A stretch of DNA of 64,000 nt from an uncultured Bacillota bacterium. Its GTDB lineage: Bacteria; Bacillota; Dethiobacteria; DTU022; UBA8154. The notes under the pieces are model-generated. The model made no database searches. It had not been told where the DNA came from and saw only the letters and a program-made list of their open reading frames with translations. A program made the position numbers and the translations under genes. The DNA lies in contig CALJJZ010000035.1 in NCBI GenBank assembly GCA_937973635.1, positions 10,812-74,811 on the forward strand, read 5' to 3'. Shown here in pieces: positions 43,734 through 64,000 of this stretch; within the stretch, counting starts at the first letter, position 1, and every line of letters starts with the position of its first letter.

Positions 43734-46700
43734 CTAAACATCGGGCGCAGAGTCTCCCTTTCCCGCTATTTTTTCCACCATGCGGTAGAGCTCGTCGGCA
43801 TCAATAGGTTTGGCCAGGTAACCGTCCATACCCGCCTCCAGGCACCTTTCCCGGTCGCCCCGCATGGCATGGGCAGTCATGGCAATAATGGGGATATGCT
43901 CTCCGGTGGCGGCCTCTTTCCTGCGGATCCGCTTGGTCGCTTCCAGGCCGTCCACCTCCGGCATCTGCACGTCCATAAGGACCAGGTCAAAGGCGGTCTT
44001 CTCCAGCAGCTCCAGGGCCTCCATGCCGTTGCCGGCTTCTGTTACGCTGTACCCTTTCCTCTCCAGCAAGACGCTGATCAATTTGCGGTTCATGGGCTTG
44101 TCCTCCACCAGCAGTATTTTAAAGTCCTGCCGCTGCTCTTTTTGCAGCGGAGGCACGGCGGTCTGCGCCGCCGCGGCGTTATACCCGGTGTAAGGGAGAA
44201 GGCTGTAGATGCGCTCCAACAGCTCCGACCGTTTAACCGGCTTGATCAGGTAAGCGTCGAGGCCTTTTTCCCGGCAGGAAGCGGTACTGTAATCAAGGCC
44301 TACCGAAGAGAGCATCATCACCAGGGCATGGGCCATTACGGGCTCGCTGCGGATCAGCTCGGCGAGCTGAAAGCCATCCATGCCGGGCATCTGCTGGTCT
44401 AAAATGACCAGATCGAAGGGTGAGCCTTGCCCGGCGGCTCGGCGCAGGACCGCTAGCCCCTCGCTCCCCCCGGAGGCGGTTTGGACTTCTGCGCCCCACT
44501 GCCCGAGGGTTTTTTCCAAAACAAGCCTGCTCCCTTTATTGTCGTCAACGACCAGCACTTTTAACCCGCGCAGTGCTTCTTTTTTTTCTACGCCGTTCCG
44601 GAGCTCCGGCAGTTCCGACAGCTCCTTTGCCTCCGCCAAAGCAAAGGGGAGCACAAAGAAAAAAGTGCTGCCTTCCCCCTCTTTGCTCTTTACGCCGATG
44701 TGCCCGCCCATCATCTCCACGATCCTTTTGGAGATGGCTAGCCCTAGGCCCGTCCCTTCGTACCTGCGGGTACTGGAGCTGTCTACCTGGCTGAAACTTT
44801 CAAAGAGGAGCTCTTGGTTTGCGGCGCTGATGCCGATCCCCGTATCACGGACAGAAAACCGCAGCCATACCTGGCCAGCAGCAGGTGACGCTGCCAGTTC
44901 CCTTTCCACGGTCAGCACCACCTCTCCCTGTTCCGTAAATTTTACAGCATTGCCCAACAGATTAAAGAGTACCTGCCTCAGGCGCACAGGGTCGCCCTTT
45001 AGCAGGGCAGGCACATCTTCCCCCATGGTATAGAGCAGCTCCAGCTGCTTTTCGTGGGCGCGCAGAGCAAAGGCAGCCACACTTTTTTCCACCAGTGTTA
45101 CAAGGTTAAAGGCTAGGTTTTCCAGCTCTAAACGGCCCGCTTCTATTTTGGAGAAGTCCAGGATGTCGTTGATAATGGTTAAGAGGGACTCCGCCGAATC
45201 CCTAATCATGCCGGCAAATTCCCGCTGCTCCCTACTTAGCTCTGCTTCACAGAGAAGTTTGGACATGCCCACAATTACGTTCATAGGGGTACGGATCTCG
45301 TGGCTGATATTGGCCAGGAATTCGCTTTTGGCCCGGTTGGCCGCTTCAGCCTTTTCCCTGGCCTGCTCCAGCTGGAGGTTGGCACGGCGCAGCTCCGCTT
45401 CGGCCTCCTTGCGCTCCGTAATATCCTGAATCATGCCCACAGAGCGGATAATTTTGCCCGCCGCATCCTTCATGTGGTTGCATTTTTCATAAACGTAACG
45501 CACTTCGCCGCTGTTTTTACGTACAATGCGGTGCTCTAGCTCGTATGATTCCCGCCCTTCCTCCAGGGACTGCCTGTAGGCCGCGTCTACGATCTCCCTA
45601 TCCTCCGGGTGGACGCCCTGGAGGAACGTCTCGTAGCTGGCGGGAAATTCCCCCGGCTGCAGGCCGAAGATACGGTAAACTTCATCGGACCAGTACAGCC
45701 TCCCGGTGGTAAGATCTAGCTCCCAGCTGCCCAGGCGGGCGATCTCCTGGGTTTTATTTAACCTGGTCTCGCTCAAGCGCAGCTCTTCTTCCACCAGCCT
45801 GCGAGCCGTAACATTGTTGATGGCCAGGAGAGCATGTTGTCTGCCGCCAAGGGAGAAGGAGGTGGCGCTGATGCTGAACCAGAAGCGGTGCTCCCGGTCC
45901 TGGCAGTAGAGGCGCTGCTCCCCCTCCACATTGTAAATGGGCTCCCCTGTCTGCAGGACGCGCTCAAAGGTGCTGCGGATGGCGCACTGGGAGCAGGCCT
46001 CCGCTTTGCCGCAGCCATGTTCCCTGGAGTTGATGCAGCAGAGTCCGTCGCCGGGCTGGTGGTTTAAAAGCTGGGTGGCTTCCTTCCGCACCAGCTCCGT
46101 CGCCACCTTGTTTACCCGCCTAACGGCTGTATTTTCGTCGATGAGCAACATGGCCACGGGAGCAGCGTCAAAAATGGCCTGTAGGTTGGCGTGTTCCTGC
46201 TCCAGCTGCCTTTTGTTGGCCAGCAACTCCTGCTCCACCTCTTTACGTTCAGTAATCTCCTGCTCCAGCCTTTTACTCTTCGCTTCGAGCTCTGCCGTGT
46301 AAAGAGATATTTTCCGCTCCTGCTCCTTGCGCTCCGTAATGTCAATTTTAAATTCGGCCACCAACCACTCGCCGTTTTCGTTCTGAAAGGGGATGGAATG
46401 AACCTCCACGATGCGGTCGTCCTCTTGGGGCAGGACCTGCTCCGAGATTACAACTTGCTTCGTTTCCAGAGCACGGAGAATGCCGCAGGACTCACAGGCG
46501 CTCTTAGCACCTTTAAAATATTCGTAGCATTTCCTCCCCGCCGTTTCCCCGTAGATCTCCCGCCATAAAGGGTCCACATAACGCAAGTTGTACGCGCCAT
46601 CAACAATGTCAAAGCCGGTGCCGGTGGCCCGCATCACGTAGCTGAGGCGCTGCATTGTCTCTTCTAGCTCTTTTTGCCTCAGCTGCAGCAGTTTCTCTGC

Positions 46701-47153
46701 CCTTTTTCGTTCCGTAATATCCCGGATAATGGCCGCCGCCCAGTATTTGTCCTTTATCTTGATGGGCGAAAGGGCGATCTCGATGGGAAACTCCTCGCCG
46801 CTTTTATGCCTGGCCATCAGCTCCATTACTTTGCCCACCGCCCTGCCTGTGCCACTCTCCTGGAAGCGGGCGAACCCCTGCAGGAACGCCTCTTTATATC
46901 TTTCCGGCATGAGTATGCCGTGCACATCTCGCCCCAGCATCTCCTCCCGGGCATAACCAAAGATCTTCTCCGCCGCAGGGTTCCAGTAGACAACCCGCCC
47001 CCCGTCGTTGATGAGGATGATCGCGTCCAGGGCAAAGTCACTGATGGCACGGAATTTCTCTTCGCTCTCCCGCAGCACTTGCTCCACCTGAAAATGAGCG
47101 CCGTTTTGCTGTTTTTCCCCTTGGACCACGTCCTTTTTCTCCCTATGCATCAT
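43734..47153 (-). CDS. Multi-PAS hybrid sensor histidine kinase with two C-terminal receiver domains
   Basis: At least four or five PAS/PAC repeats, two of which carry Cys clusters. It has a HisKA H-box HEIRTPMNVIVGM, an HATPase_c domain, and two receivers (VLVVDD...DLVILDQQMPGMDG; ILLVED...DLVLMDVQMPEVDG). Probable start MMHREKK. Confidence 0.85.
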   Translation of the reverse strand: MMHREKKDVVQGEKQQNGAHFQVEQVLRESEEKFRAISDFALDAIILINDGGRVVYWNPAAEKIFGYAREEMLGRDVHGILMPERYKEAFLQGFARFQESGTGRAVGKVMELMARHKSGEEFPIEIALSPIKIKDKYWAAAIIRDITERKRAEKLLQLRQKELEETMQRLSYVMRATGTGFDIVDGAYNLRYVDPLWREIYGETAGRKCYEYFKGAKSACESCGILRALETKQVVISEQVLPQEDDRIVEVHSIPFQNENGEWLVAEFKIDITERKEQERKISLYTAELEAKSKRLEQEITERKEVEQELLANKRQLEQEHANLQAIFDAAPVAMLLIDENTAVRRVNKVATELVRKEATQLLNHQPGDGLCCINSREHGCGKAEACSQCAIRSTFERVLQTGEPIYNVEGEQRLYCQDREHRFWFSISATSFSLGGRQHALLAINNVTARRLVEEELRLSETRLNKTQEIARLGSWELDLTTGRLYWSDEVYRIFGLQPGEFPASYETFLQGVHPEDREIVDAAYRQSLEEGRESYELEHRIVRKNSGEVRYVYEKCNHMKDAAGKIIRSVGMIQDITERKEAEAELRRANLQLEQAREKAEAANRAKSEFLANISHEIRTPMNVIVGMSKLLCEAELSREQREFAGMIRDSAESLLTIINDILDFSKIEAGRLELENLAFNLVTLVEKSVAAFALRAHEKQLELLYTMGEDVPALLKGDPVRLRQVLFNLLGNAVKFTEQGEVVLTVERELAASPAAGQVWLRFSVRDTGIGISAANQELLFESFSQVDSSSTRRYEGTGLGLAISKRIVEMMGGHIGVKSKEGEGSTFFFVLPFALAEAKELSELPELRNGVEKKEALRGLKVLVVDDNKGSRLVLEKTLGQWGAEVQTASGGSEGLAVLRRAAGQGSPFDLVILDQQMPGMDGFQLAELIRSEPVMAHALVMMLSSVGLDYSTASCREKGLDAYLIKPVKRSELLERIYSLLPYTGYNAAAAQTAVPPLQKEQRQDFKILLVEDKPMNRKLISVLLERKGYSVTEAGNGMEALELLEKTAFDLVLMDVQMPEVDGLEATKRIRRKEAATGEHIPIIAMTAHAMRGDRERCLEAGMDGYLAKPIDADELYRMVEKIAGKGDSAPDV

Positions 47154-63502: not shown

Positions 63503-64000
63503 GACAAGGATCCTTCCCCTTACTGCCGTTTATCTTCTCCAGGATTTTAACGGCTTCGTAAAAATTTTTGCCGTAACAATCTCCCCCCACGTACGGTAGC
63601 AGCGCAGCATCCACATTGAAGATCCTGCCGCCCACAATGACAACACCTTTAAACTGCCGCACCGCCCTGACCTTTTCGATGGTCTCTCGGACAAATCTGA
63701 CATTAAAGGAAAGGGAGCAAGAGAGGCCTAAGGCCGTATAATCGCCCCTGCCCAAAGCCTCGGCAATAAAATGGGGAGGAATGTTTGAACCTAGATAGGT
63801 TACATCCCAGCCCTCCAGTTCCCAGATGTCAGAGAGCATCCTGGCCCCCAGCTCGTGCAGTTCGCTCCCCGGGCAGGCGACAAGCACTTTACCCCTCTCT
63901 TTCTCCCGGGATTCGATGCTTTGCAGCAACGTCGGGTAATGGCTAGAAATAATATTCTGAGTAATCGCCGTAGCCAGGTGCTCCTGGGCCACGCTGATCT
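63492..64000 (-). CDS. Cobalamin (B12)-binding domain protein; the 5' end may lie beyond the window
   Basis: Rossmann-like B12-binding core GKVLVACPGSELHELG (an xHxxG-type motif) preceded by a helical B12-binding_2-like segment. The frame is still open at 64000. Confidence 0.55.
   Translation of the reverse strand, partial: ISVAQEHLATAITQNIISSHYPTLLQSIESREKERGKVLVACPGSELHELGARMLSDIWELEGWDVTYLGSNIPPHFIAEALGRGDYTALGLSCSLSFNVRFVRETIEKVRAVRQFKGVVIVGGRIFNVDAALLPYVGGDCYGKNFYEAVKILEKINGSKGKDPCHGH

Follow-up and report, generated by a model that had tools for sequence, protein, structure and literature searches.

A probable F7-type chemosensory system with a STAS/PP2C accessory set and a plausibly attached hybrid-kinase/Hpt phosphorelay in a bacterium of the Dethiobacteria lineage

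A 64,000-nucleotide stretch of contig CALJJZ010000035.1 (assembly GCA_937973635.1), referred to below as the window, derives from an uncultured Bacillota bacterium of the Dethiobacteria lineage and contains a run of signaling genes at positions 43734-64000. These genes probably encode a chemosensory system of the F7 type that carries a STAS/PP2C accessory set and has a hybrid-kinase/Hpt phosphorelay attached to it. The system is placed in the F7 type by receptor class and gene order only. This kind of system is already known in proteobacteria; the Bacillota host, the lineage-specific insertions and the incomplete partner switch are new. Genes for STAS proteins, PP2C and the receptor-like protein CC623 travel with this clade of CheA across at least two phyla.

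Nineteen minus-strand open reading frames (ORFs) follow one another in unbroken succession across 43734-64000 in the ORF list. An earlier note, made from the letters of the window, had described the same 19 co-oriented genes, and all of its domain assignments agree with a Pfam scan of the cluster ORFs. In order of transcription, genes 1-9 encode a B12-binding protein, a kinase with a receiver domain (REC) and HisKA_3, a NarL-type regulator, a weak receiver, a REC-HD-GYP protein, a CZB-HAMP methyl-accepting chemotaxis protein (MCP), the STAS protein STASa, an Hpt and a beta-helix protein. Genes 10-19 encode STASb, CheY, CheA, CheR, CheD, CheB, CC623, STASc, a REC-SpoIIE/PP2C protein and a multi-PAS hybrid kinase with two REC domains. 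Twelve of the 18 junctions are overlaps or gaps of at most 36 bp, and the remainder measure 53, 80, 83, 134 and approximately 158 bp; within the core that extends from STASb to the hybrid kinase, only overlaps or gaps of up to 53 bp occur. In the translations, the Hpt histidine and the catalytic motifs of PP2C, HD-GYP, CheA, CheB and CheD are all preserved. The genes on which the argument rests are listed below, with domains assigned by Pfam and further sources given in parentheses.

58292-60004, minus strand: CZB-HAMP-MCPsignal transmembrane chemoreceptor (also predicted transmembrane segments)
57690-58157, minus strand: STASa, phosphorylatable-type (DSAG), with a C-terminal extension of approximately 50 amino acids (aa) (also motif/class analysis)
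57247-57606, minus strand: stand-alone Hpt with the conserved His (AHGLKGE)
55731-56024, minus strand: STASb, non-phosphorylatable (DAAG), approximately 100 aa, STAS-only, overlapping the cheY start by 4 nt
55354-55734, minus strand: CheY, single-domain receiver
53222-55339, minus strand: CheA with P1 (Hpt), P3, P4 and P5 (CheW-like) domains
52359-53225, minus strand: CheR methyltransferase
51729-52334, minus strand: CheD
50641-51729, minus strand: CheB methylesterase (REC and CheB_methylest)
48733-50604, minus strand: CC623, soluble all-helical double-hairpin protein of 623 aa (also AlphaFold and profile search)
48408-48719, minus strand: STASc, phosphorylatable-type (DSSG) (also motif/class analysis)
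47143-48354, minus strand: REC-PP2C (SpoIIE-type), 403 aa, no fused kinase domain
43734-47153, minus strand: hybrid kinase with multiple PAS domains, HisKA, HATPase_c and two REC domains, no Hpt

The order cheY-cheA-cheR-cheD-cheB, with a 4-nt overlap between cheA and cheR, with CheD present and with CheC, CheX and CheZ absent, is that of the F7 class, and the Arcobacter F7 operon is likewise arranged as cheYARDB (PMC9321776). The receptor of the cluster also has the heptad class expected of an F7 system. From the end of HAMP at residue 263 to the tip Glu at residue 390 it spans 126 aa, equivalent to 18 heptads in each arm, the same number as Tsr has, and is thus a 36H receptor. It is the sole cluster protein with predicted transmembrane segments, and it carries four consensus methylation motifs and the C-terminus DEDDFEKF. 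The closest CheA proteins are those of a metagenome-assembled genome designated L012 (70% identity), Dethiobacter alkaliphilus (67%), Fuchsiella (59%), Anaerobacillus (57%) and Thermincola (55%), and the CheA clade that holds the window has neighbor-joining (NJ) bootstrap support of 95/100. The TsaD protein of the window is 72-73% identical to its nearest named relatives, the source names of which begin with 'Det...'. Over the P3-P5 domains, the window CheA scores 360 bits with E. coli CheA (F7) and 308 bits with T. maritima CheA (F1).

The CZB domain of the receptor (residues 58-128) lies between both membrane segments and is therefore extracytoplasmic, with the motif HxxW...CxFGxW...HxxxH intact. 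The best-known CZB domains are cytoplasmic. The CZB-HAMP-MCP architecture also occurs in related clusters.

To assess conservation, CheA was scanned in species-representative genomes, and the 80 loci obtained were annotated with profiles built from the window proteins. A STAS gene stands directly upstream of (cheY-)cheA in 44 of the 52 loci whose CheA shares 41% identity or more with the window CheA, compared to two of the 27 more distant loci. Among loci with full flanks, PP2C is present in 20/28 of the former and in 0/16 of the latter. The proposed link between the che genes and a STAS/PP2C set is hence a property of the CheA clade of the window and not of distant CheA proteins. Bacillota relatives carry a permutation of the same parts, CC623-STAS-(STAS)-CheY-CheA-CheR-CheD-CheB-MCP-CheW-STAS-PP2C. 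Approximately 35 genomes of the Desulfomonilia/Syntrophaceae type, with CheA identities of 41-45%, have (CC623-like)-STAS-STAS-CheY-CheA-MCP-CheW-CheR-CheD-CheB-REC-PP2C (delta-type loci). According to the earlier note, a lack of conservation alongside the che genes would speak against its reading; such a lack is not seen for STAS and PP2C, but it is seen for the beta-helix, pseudo-receiver, REC-HD-GYP and B12 genes, which lack an equivalent next to the cluster in all relatives annotated. The HisKA_3/NarL pair flanks a paralogous che cluster in two genomes (L016 and L021), where the proteins are 38-50% identical to those of the window.

The three STAS proteins of the window differ at the phosphoacceptor position. 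As had been noticed earlier, STASb has Ala in place of Ser (DAAG), compared to DSSG in STASc and DSAG in STASa. This substitution recurs in kind among relatives: in 44 STAS proteins encoded before cheY, motifs such as DISG, DIAG, DASG, DTSG and DAAG predominate, with an acceptor Ser in only three and Thr in five. In contrast, STAS proteins adjoining CC623 or PP2C have DSSG in seven of nine cases and DSTG in one, and the upstream member of the STAS-STAS pair in delta-type loci (GSSG or DSSG) also keeps the Ser. Within-class identities amount to 34% and 53%, compared to 21% across the classes. Because pre-cheY STAS proteins rarely keep Ser and the classes are distinct, STASb is best viewed as a member of a conserved class rather than as a decayed copy. 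By motif and position, then, there are two STAS classes: a predicted non-phosphorylatable one fixed before cheY-cheA, and a Ser-keeping one beside CC623 or PP2C.

CC623 was described in the earlier note as a soluble MCP-like protein. This description is apt, as the protein has no transmembrane segments and its MCPsignal match falls below the Pfam threshold (26.5 vs 34.6 bits). An AlphaFold model (predicted local distance difference test, pLDDT, 77) consists of two long antiparallel hairpins with turns near residues 153 and 440. The first tip, ISLNAIIFSSRLGEEGRAFAVVSDHI, is receptor-like and aligns with the tip of T. maritima TM1143, whereas the second is degenerate. The C-terminus (...EGELTLF) is conserved in the family. 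A word-indexed search returned only ten relatives; an exhaustive profile search yielded 429 sequence clusters with E ≤ 1e-10, of which 90 reach E ≤ 1e-30. Almost all of them have 570-650 aa and align from end to end, and the few with source names are called hypothetical. In 26 of the 29 non-redundant cases, the gene of this family has a STAS gene as its neighbor, including one locus (L005) in which the two stand together though no che gene is near. CC623 is therefore most likely a receptor-derived member of an uncharacterised family and a likely partner of the phosphorylatable STAS, as judged from sequence and gene neighborhood.

Further arrangements of the family were observed. At L093 (6663-15930), a che cluster reads STAS-CheY-CheA-CheW-STAS-CC586-CheB-CheW-580 aa-CheR and holds no ordinary MCP; its only receptor-like genes encode CC586, which belongs to the CC623 family, and the 580-aa protein, which has no Pfam match and is probably a second member. 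At L092 (9030-12300), the gene for a distant member of 571 aa is flanked by cheD and by a gene for a ParA-like ATPase, with dnaA, dnaN and gyrB a few kb away, an arrangement that recalls the ParA-type positioning of cytoplasmic receptor clusters. L009 (1919-7068) has STAS-CheY-CheR-CheB-STAS-CC623, without cheA or cheD in the cluster. A Foldseek comparison of the CC623 model with the PDB was uninformative, returning generic long coiled coils only (SMC, Rad50 and pore-forming toxins). Two candidate relationships were rejected. Homology to Atu0514/IcpA does not apply, Atu0514 being an ordinary protoglobin-HAMP-36H receptor (PMC8466855), and membership of the DosM family was dismissed for lack of an F9 context and a triple-CheW partner.

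The REC-PP2C protein presents the metal-binding motifs GGDY, DVSGH, TDGLTE and DDVT on reading of its sequence and is 53% identical to the REC-PP2C of L012. In most relatives (delta-type loci, Fuchsiella and Anaerobacillus) the PP2C is fused to HATPase_c_2, whereas the proteins of the window, L012, Dethiobacter and Desulfarculus lack this domain. The hybrid kinase gene has its longest ORF from 47195, and its likely start is an ATG at 47153/47150 in overlap with the stop codon of the PP2C gene, an indication that translation of the two is coupled. Along its whole length, the encoded kinase shares 34% identity with a Thermincola HK-REC-REC-Hpt protein that flanks the same cluster. Hybrid kinases with a fused Hpt flank the cluster in L006/L012, L018 and L019. 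The best matches of the free Hpt of the window are the fused C-terminal Hpt domains of such cluster-flanking kinases (41-45% identity for L006/L012 and 33-35% for Thermincola). Because it is closest to these domains, the free Hpt is best read as the split-off tail of the flanking kinase, and it is plausible that an Hpt relay is attached to the cluster.

No cheW lies inside the window, as the earlier note had remarked, but the apparent absence of CheW from the system is a window-edge effect. A metagenomic contig (L001) that is 100% identical over a 5139-bp overlap adds 4270 bp past the window end. On the same strand, approximately 3.3-4.3 kb past that end (L001 3-953, corresponding to approximately 67318-68268 in window coordinates), it carries the 3' end of an MCP gene and a cheW gene. 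This CheW, encoded approximately 3.3 kb past the end of the window, shares 85% identity with the CheW encoded inside the Dethiobacter alkaliphilus cluster and 79% with its L012 counterpart, and is therefore regarded as the cognate coupling protein. The second MCP, likewise of the 36H class, ends in DEGDFEKF. The DNA between the B12 gene and this MCP/cheW pair contains a small ORF, a gene for a PAS-kinase-REC protein and a divergent MORN-repeat gene; the latter, encoding 212 aa at L001 1040-1678 (minus in the locus), lies between cheW and the upstream PAS-kinase-REC gene.

The 19 genes do not appear to form a single unit. A terminator-like signal directly follows the NarL gene:

61688-61669, minus strand: terminator-like hairpin with a U7 run, directly 3' of the NarL gene (-13.6 kcal/mol, z = -2.9)

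This signal implies that the 19 genes probably constitute at least two transcription units, and the B12, HisKA_3 and NarL genes are probably a separate upstream unit, as far as can be judged from sequence. The lack of counterparts of the pseudo-receiver, REC-HD-GYP and beta-helix genes beside the clusters of relatives also speaks against one 19-gene unit. An Rfam scan of the whole window found no RNA family, and the longer gaps are not explained by a riboswitch. Promoter-like sites are not more numerous than in shuffled sequence (14 vs 9.5 ± 3.2).

Comparison with characterized systems shows where the locus is familiar and where it departs from them. The earlier note did not recognise the arrangement as one already described, but close counterparts exist in the F7 'stage 1' clusters (PMC7184735) and in S. 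oneidensis Che1 with CrsR/CrsA (PMC9855816). The 'stage 1' arrangement, the oldest in gammaproteobacteria, reads STAS-cheY-cheA-cheW-cheW-aer2-cheR-cheD-cheB-mcpA-STAS-Ser phosphatase and is carried, for example, by V. cholerae (cluster III) and Methylomicrobium alcaliphilum (Ortega et al. 2020, PMC7184735). The window shares with it a STAS gene just before cheY-cheA, the series cheR-cheD-cheB followed by a receptor-like gene, a STAS gene and a Ser phosphatase gene, and a 36H receptor. Unlike 'stage 1', it has neither the pair of cheW genes nor aer2 in the interval from cheA to cheR; the genes for CheW and one MCP are located approximately 12 kb upstream of cheA, and that for the CZB receptor approximately 3 kb upstream. 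Furthermore, the downstream receptor is the soluble double-hairpin CC623 instead of a transmembrane McpA, Hpt and beta-helix genes are inserted, a hybrid kinase gene is appended, and the host is a member of the Bacillota rather than a gammaproteobacterium.

The partner switch has precedents of its own. In S. oneidensis Che1, CrsR/CrsA controls RpoS (PMC9855816), and in Pseudomonas the homologous HsbR/HsbA receives its input from HptB (PMC6482189). The window resembles these systems in that a REC-PP2C and a phosphorylatable STAS are encoded with che genes and an Hpt is available as a phosphodonor. However, CrsR and HsbR carry an anti-sigma kinase domain (HATPase_c_2) and bind RpoS, whereas the window protein is REC-PP2C only, with no kinase or sigma factor gene nearby. 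A kinase-less REC-PP2C is also a feature of the RsbK-RsbY(-RsbM) system of B. cereus, in which it works with a multi-domain hybrid sensor kinase and a CheR-type methyltransferase is encoded nearby. In the window, too, the gene of such a protein adjoins, and indeed overlaps, that of a hybrid sensor kinase, with CheR in the neighborhood. In contrast to B. cereus, there is no rsbV-rsbW-sigB operon in the window, and CheR has a receptor substrate with consensus sites and belongs to a complete CheA/CheB/CheD set.

For the individual accessory proteins, the nearest analogues are CheS and DosM. S. meliloti and A. fabrum have CheS, a protein consisting solely of a STAS domain, which binds CheA and changes how CheA deals with CheY (PMC12654446). 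In these species the cluster begins with a soluble receptor gene, the receptors are of the 36H class and the system functions in chemotaxis (PMC12654446, PMC8466855); A. fabrum keeps cheW outside the che cluster (PMC12654446, PMC8466855). STASb is likewise a STAS-only protein of approximately 100 aa encoded directly upstream of cheY-cheA, and in relatives a soluble receptor gene precedes it. The alphaproteobacterial clusters differ in having no PP2C and no second STAS and in controlling flagella. DosM of F9 cytoplasmic arrays (PMC9321776) resembles CC623 in being a soluble, receptor-derived protein with two tandem hairpins, no sensory domain and a likely scaffold role. However, CC623 has one MCP-like tip, which is below the Pfam threshold, and is linked to F7-like clusters and STAS. 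In addition, the CheW proteins encoded near CC623-family genes are single-domain proteins of 141-200 aa, with no triple-CheW among them.

From these comparisons, a tentative mechanism can be outlined. The 36H CZB receptors, CheW and CheA most likely form the sensing complex, with CheR, CheB and CheD serving adaptation; CheA would phosphorylate CheY and CheB. STASb would act in the manner of CheS, binding CheA and tuning the flow of phosphate to CheY. In parallel, the multi-PAS hybrid kinase may pass phosphate through the free Hpt to REC-PP2C, to which CheA may also donate, and the Hpt may serve the related receivers of the HD-GYP protein and the HisKA_3 kinase as well. Active PP2C would then dephosphorylate STASc and STASa. 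The unphosphorylated STAS would switch partner, most likely to CC623 or the receptor array, or to an anti-sigma kinase encoded elsewhere. CC623 or the array is favored as the partner over a sigma-factor regulator because CC623 and STAS genes are nearly always neighbors. A bolder version, which we regard as doubtful, takes the conserved pairing of a phosphorylatable STAS with the CC623 family to mean that the switch is exerted on the chemosensory array rather than on a sigma factor, such that STAS phosphorylation set by PP2C gates a soluble receptor scaffold, either in its assembly or in its kinase control. If so, a two-component phosphorelay of hybrid kinase and Hpt would reprogram a chemosensory pathway at the receptor level.

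Several observations weigh against the F7-type interpretation and the mechanism outlined for it. The first NJ tree of the CheA P3-P5 domains placed E. coli beside the window clade, but bootstraps showed this placement to be unstable, with the E. coli F7 CheA inside the clade in only 21/100 replicates; because of this instability, it is not used as evidence. CC623 has no conserved methylation motif, and gene adjacency is the sole ground for proposing that it binds STAS. The likening of STASb to CheS is an analogy of position and domain; the sole alphaproteobacterial counterpart compared (L063) is 24% identical to STASb and 19-20% identical to STASa/STASc. The receiver of the PP2C protein shares only 30% identity with CheY, compared to 39-42% with the receivers of the HD-GYP protein and the HisKA_3 kinase. 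The latter two are 54% identical to each other, and all receivers are approximately 30% identical to CheY, which weakly suggests that the HD-GYP, HisKA_3 and PP2C receivers might share a phosphodonor other than CheA. Lastly, the ORFs scanned in the window include no gene for an RsbW-like STAS kinase, an anti-sigma factor or a sigma factor, and neither an RsbW-like nor a sigma factor gene is found when the L001 extension is added to the 64 kb. A STAS kinase must therefore be encoded elsewhere in the genome. Consequently, the STAS/PP2C partner-switch output that had been proposed stands in part: the che genes are linked to conserved STAS and PP2C genes, but the switch is incomplete in the window.

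The absence of sigma-factor components bears directly on the possibility that the whole 20 kb encodes one non-motility pathway, with a STAS/PP2C switch on a sigma factor, HD-GYP-mediated control of cyclic di-GMP (c-di-GMP) and a NarL regulator as its outputs. The 19 genes are co-oriented and tightly packed. Che1 of S. oneidensis has a link to the control of RpoS by CrsR/CrsA, and HptB-HsbR-HsbA of Pseudomonas operates in this manner (PMC9855816, PMC6482189). The mutual similarity of the HD-GYP and HisKA_3 receivers, and their lesser similarity to the PP2C receiver, would fit such a pathway, as would the HisKA_3/NarL pairs that flank paralogous che clusters in L016 and L021. Nevertheless, this pathway appears rather unlikely: besides the missing anti-sigma kinase and sigma factor, the PP2C lacks the HATPase_c_2 domain of CrsR/HsbR-like proteins and of most relatives, the terminator-like hairpin cuts NarL off from the rest, and the pseudo-receiver and REC-HD-GYP genes are not conserved beside the cluster. 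At the opposite extreme, the run could be a chance juxtaposition of unrelated signaling operons in a signaling-rich genome. Although the gaps of 80-158 bp and the terminator-like site inside the run, together with the absence of the beta-helix, pseudo-receiver, HD-GYP and B12 genes from related loci, would be expected of such a juxtaposition, the core from STASb to the hybrid kinase is tightly packed and its parts recur together in dozens of genomes of two phyla. For the core this explanation is refuted, and for the locus as a whole it is highly improbable.

Ordinary motility chemotaxis, in which CheY acts on a flagellar motor, the STAS proteins only modulate CheA/CheY and the two-component and c-di-GMP genes are bystanders, is a further alternative. 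The statement of the earlier note that this is not a motility-type operon is not supported, as chemotaxis is the function of alphaproteobacterial clusters that share the order STAS (CheS)-cheY-cheA and have receptors of the 36H type (PMC12654446, PMC8466855). The likeness extends to the order soluble receptor-CheS-cheY-cheA-cheR in S. meliloti and A. fabrum and to the external cheW of the latter (PMC12654446, PMC8466855). The canonical methylation sites and tether-like C-terminus of the receptor agree with a motility role, and the YcgR-like PilZ gene in the window hints at flagella. On the other hand, PP2C and the phosphorylatable STAS are conserved with the CheA clade, in gammaproteobacteria the systems equipped with these accessory genes have no control over the motor (PMC7184735), and translation of the hybrid kinase is apparently coupled to that of the PP2C. 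No flagellar genes are found among the ORFs scanned in the 64 kb, in agreement with what had been noted for the cluster. A purely motility-related role is thus considered quite unlikely. The F7-type system with its STAS/PP2C set and attached phosphorelay remains the preferred interpretation.

What F7-type systems bearing STAS and PP2C do is still described as unclear (PMC7184735, PMC7534058), and this applies even to V. cholerae and P. aeruginosa. Together with approximately 50 relatives, the locus presents the accessory set as ancient and common to Bacillota and Desulfomonilia-like bacteria. It also allows two STAS roles to be told apart, a CheS-like non-phosphorylatable one and that of a phosphatase substrate, and it points to an uncharacterised family of approximately 430 sequence clusters as the likely partner of the latter, from which concrete protein pairs follow. 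No current view is overturned by the locus.

The remaining genes of the run, which lie outside the conserved set, are as follows.

61727-64000, minus strand: B12-binding protein (cut by the window end), REC-HisKA_3 kinase and NarL-type REC-GerE regulator (Pfam)
61116-61568, minus strand: pseudo-receiver with Asn at the phospho-Asp position (weak REC match)
60085-61098, minus strand: REC-HD-GYP, predicted c-di-GMP phosphodiesterase with HD and GYP motifs intact (Pfam)
56008-57222, minus strand: cytoplasmic right-handed beta-helix protein, PbH1/NosD-like (Pfam Beta_helix/NosD)

The cobalamin-binding protein can be completed from L001: it comprises 227 aa (B12-binding_2 and B12-binding) encoded by window positions 63492-64000 and L001 4096-4779, and its gene overlaps the start of the REC-HisKA_3 kinase gene (62399-63502) by 11 nt. 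It may provide a B12- or light-responsive input to the HisKA_3/NarL pair. The pseudo-receiver, whose likelier start is at 61568, matches REC with 26.7 bits, below the Pfam cut-off of 30.2, and the replacement of its phospho-Asp by Asn agrees with its earlier designation as a pseudo-REC. The beta-helix protein was likewise correctly described as cytoplasmic: it has no predicted transmembrane segments, the MCP being the only cluster protein that does. Its gene is peculiar to this genome: the homologue search found no orthologue, the best matches being generic PbH1 proteins of 26-38% identity, one of them fused to a Ser/Thr kinase, and these matches gave no hint of its function. Its exact sequence is absent from a collection of 15 billion proteins in which its neighbors are present, and it was likewise missing from the results of the homologue search; the gene may be called differently or not at all in the source annotation.

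Other genes of the window include further candidates for c-di-GMP signaling. A REC-GGDEF cyclase gene lies at 39392-40390 (minus strand), 3.3 kb from the downstream end of the cluster; a second HD-GYP protein, in this case lacking a receiver, is encoded at 36666-37772 (plus strand), and the YcgR-like PilZN/PilZ protein at 22746-23597 (minus strand). A trehalose synthase gene (TreT-like; 40394-41754, minus strand) is apparently split, with the TreT_GT1 N-terminus and the C-terminal glycosyltransferase in different ORFs, and could be a frameshifted pseudogene or an assembly error. CRISPR-associated genes occupy 546-7951 (minus strand) and encode a Cas3 helicase/HD nuclease, a WYL-domain regulator and Cas6, along with two further ORFs, one of which has no Pfam match; no CRISPR repeat array was found anywhere in the window. 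Finally, a 593-aa protein encoded at 25666-27447 (minus strand) combines a copper-amine-oxidase N-terminal domain with Big_2 domains and leucine-rich repeats and is probably a cell-surface protein.

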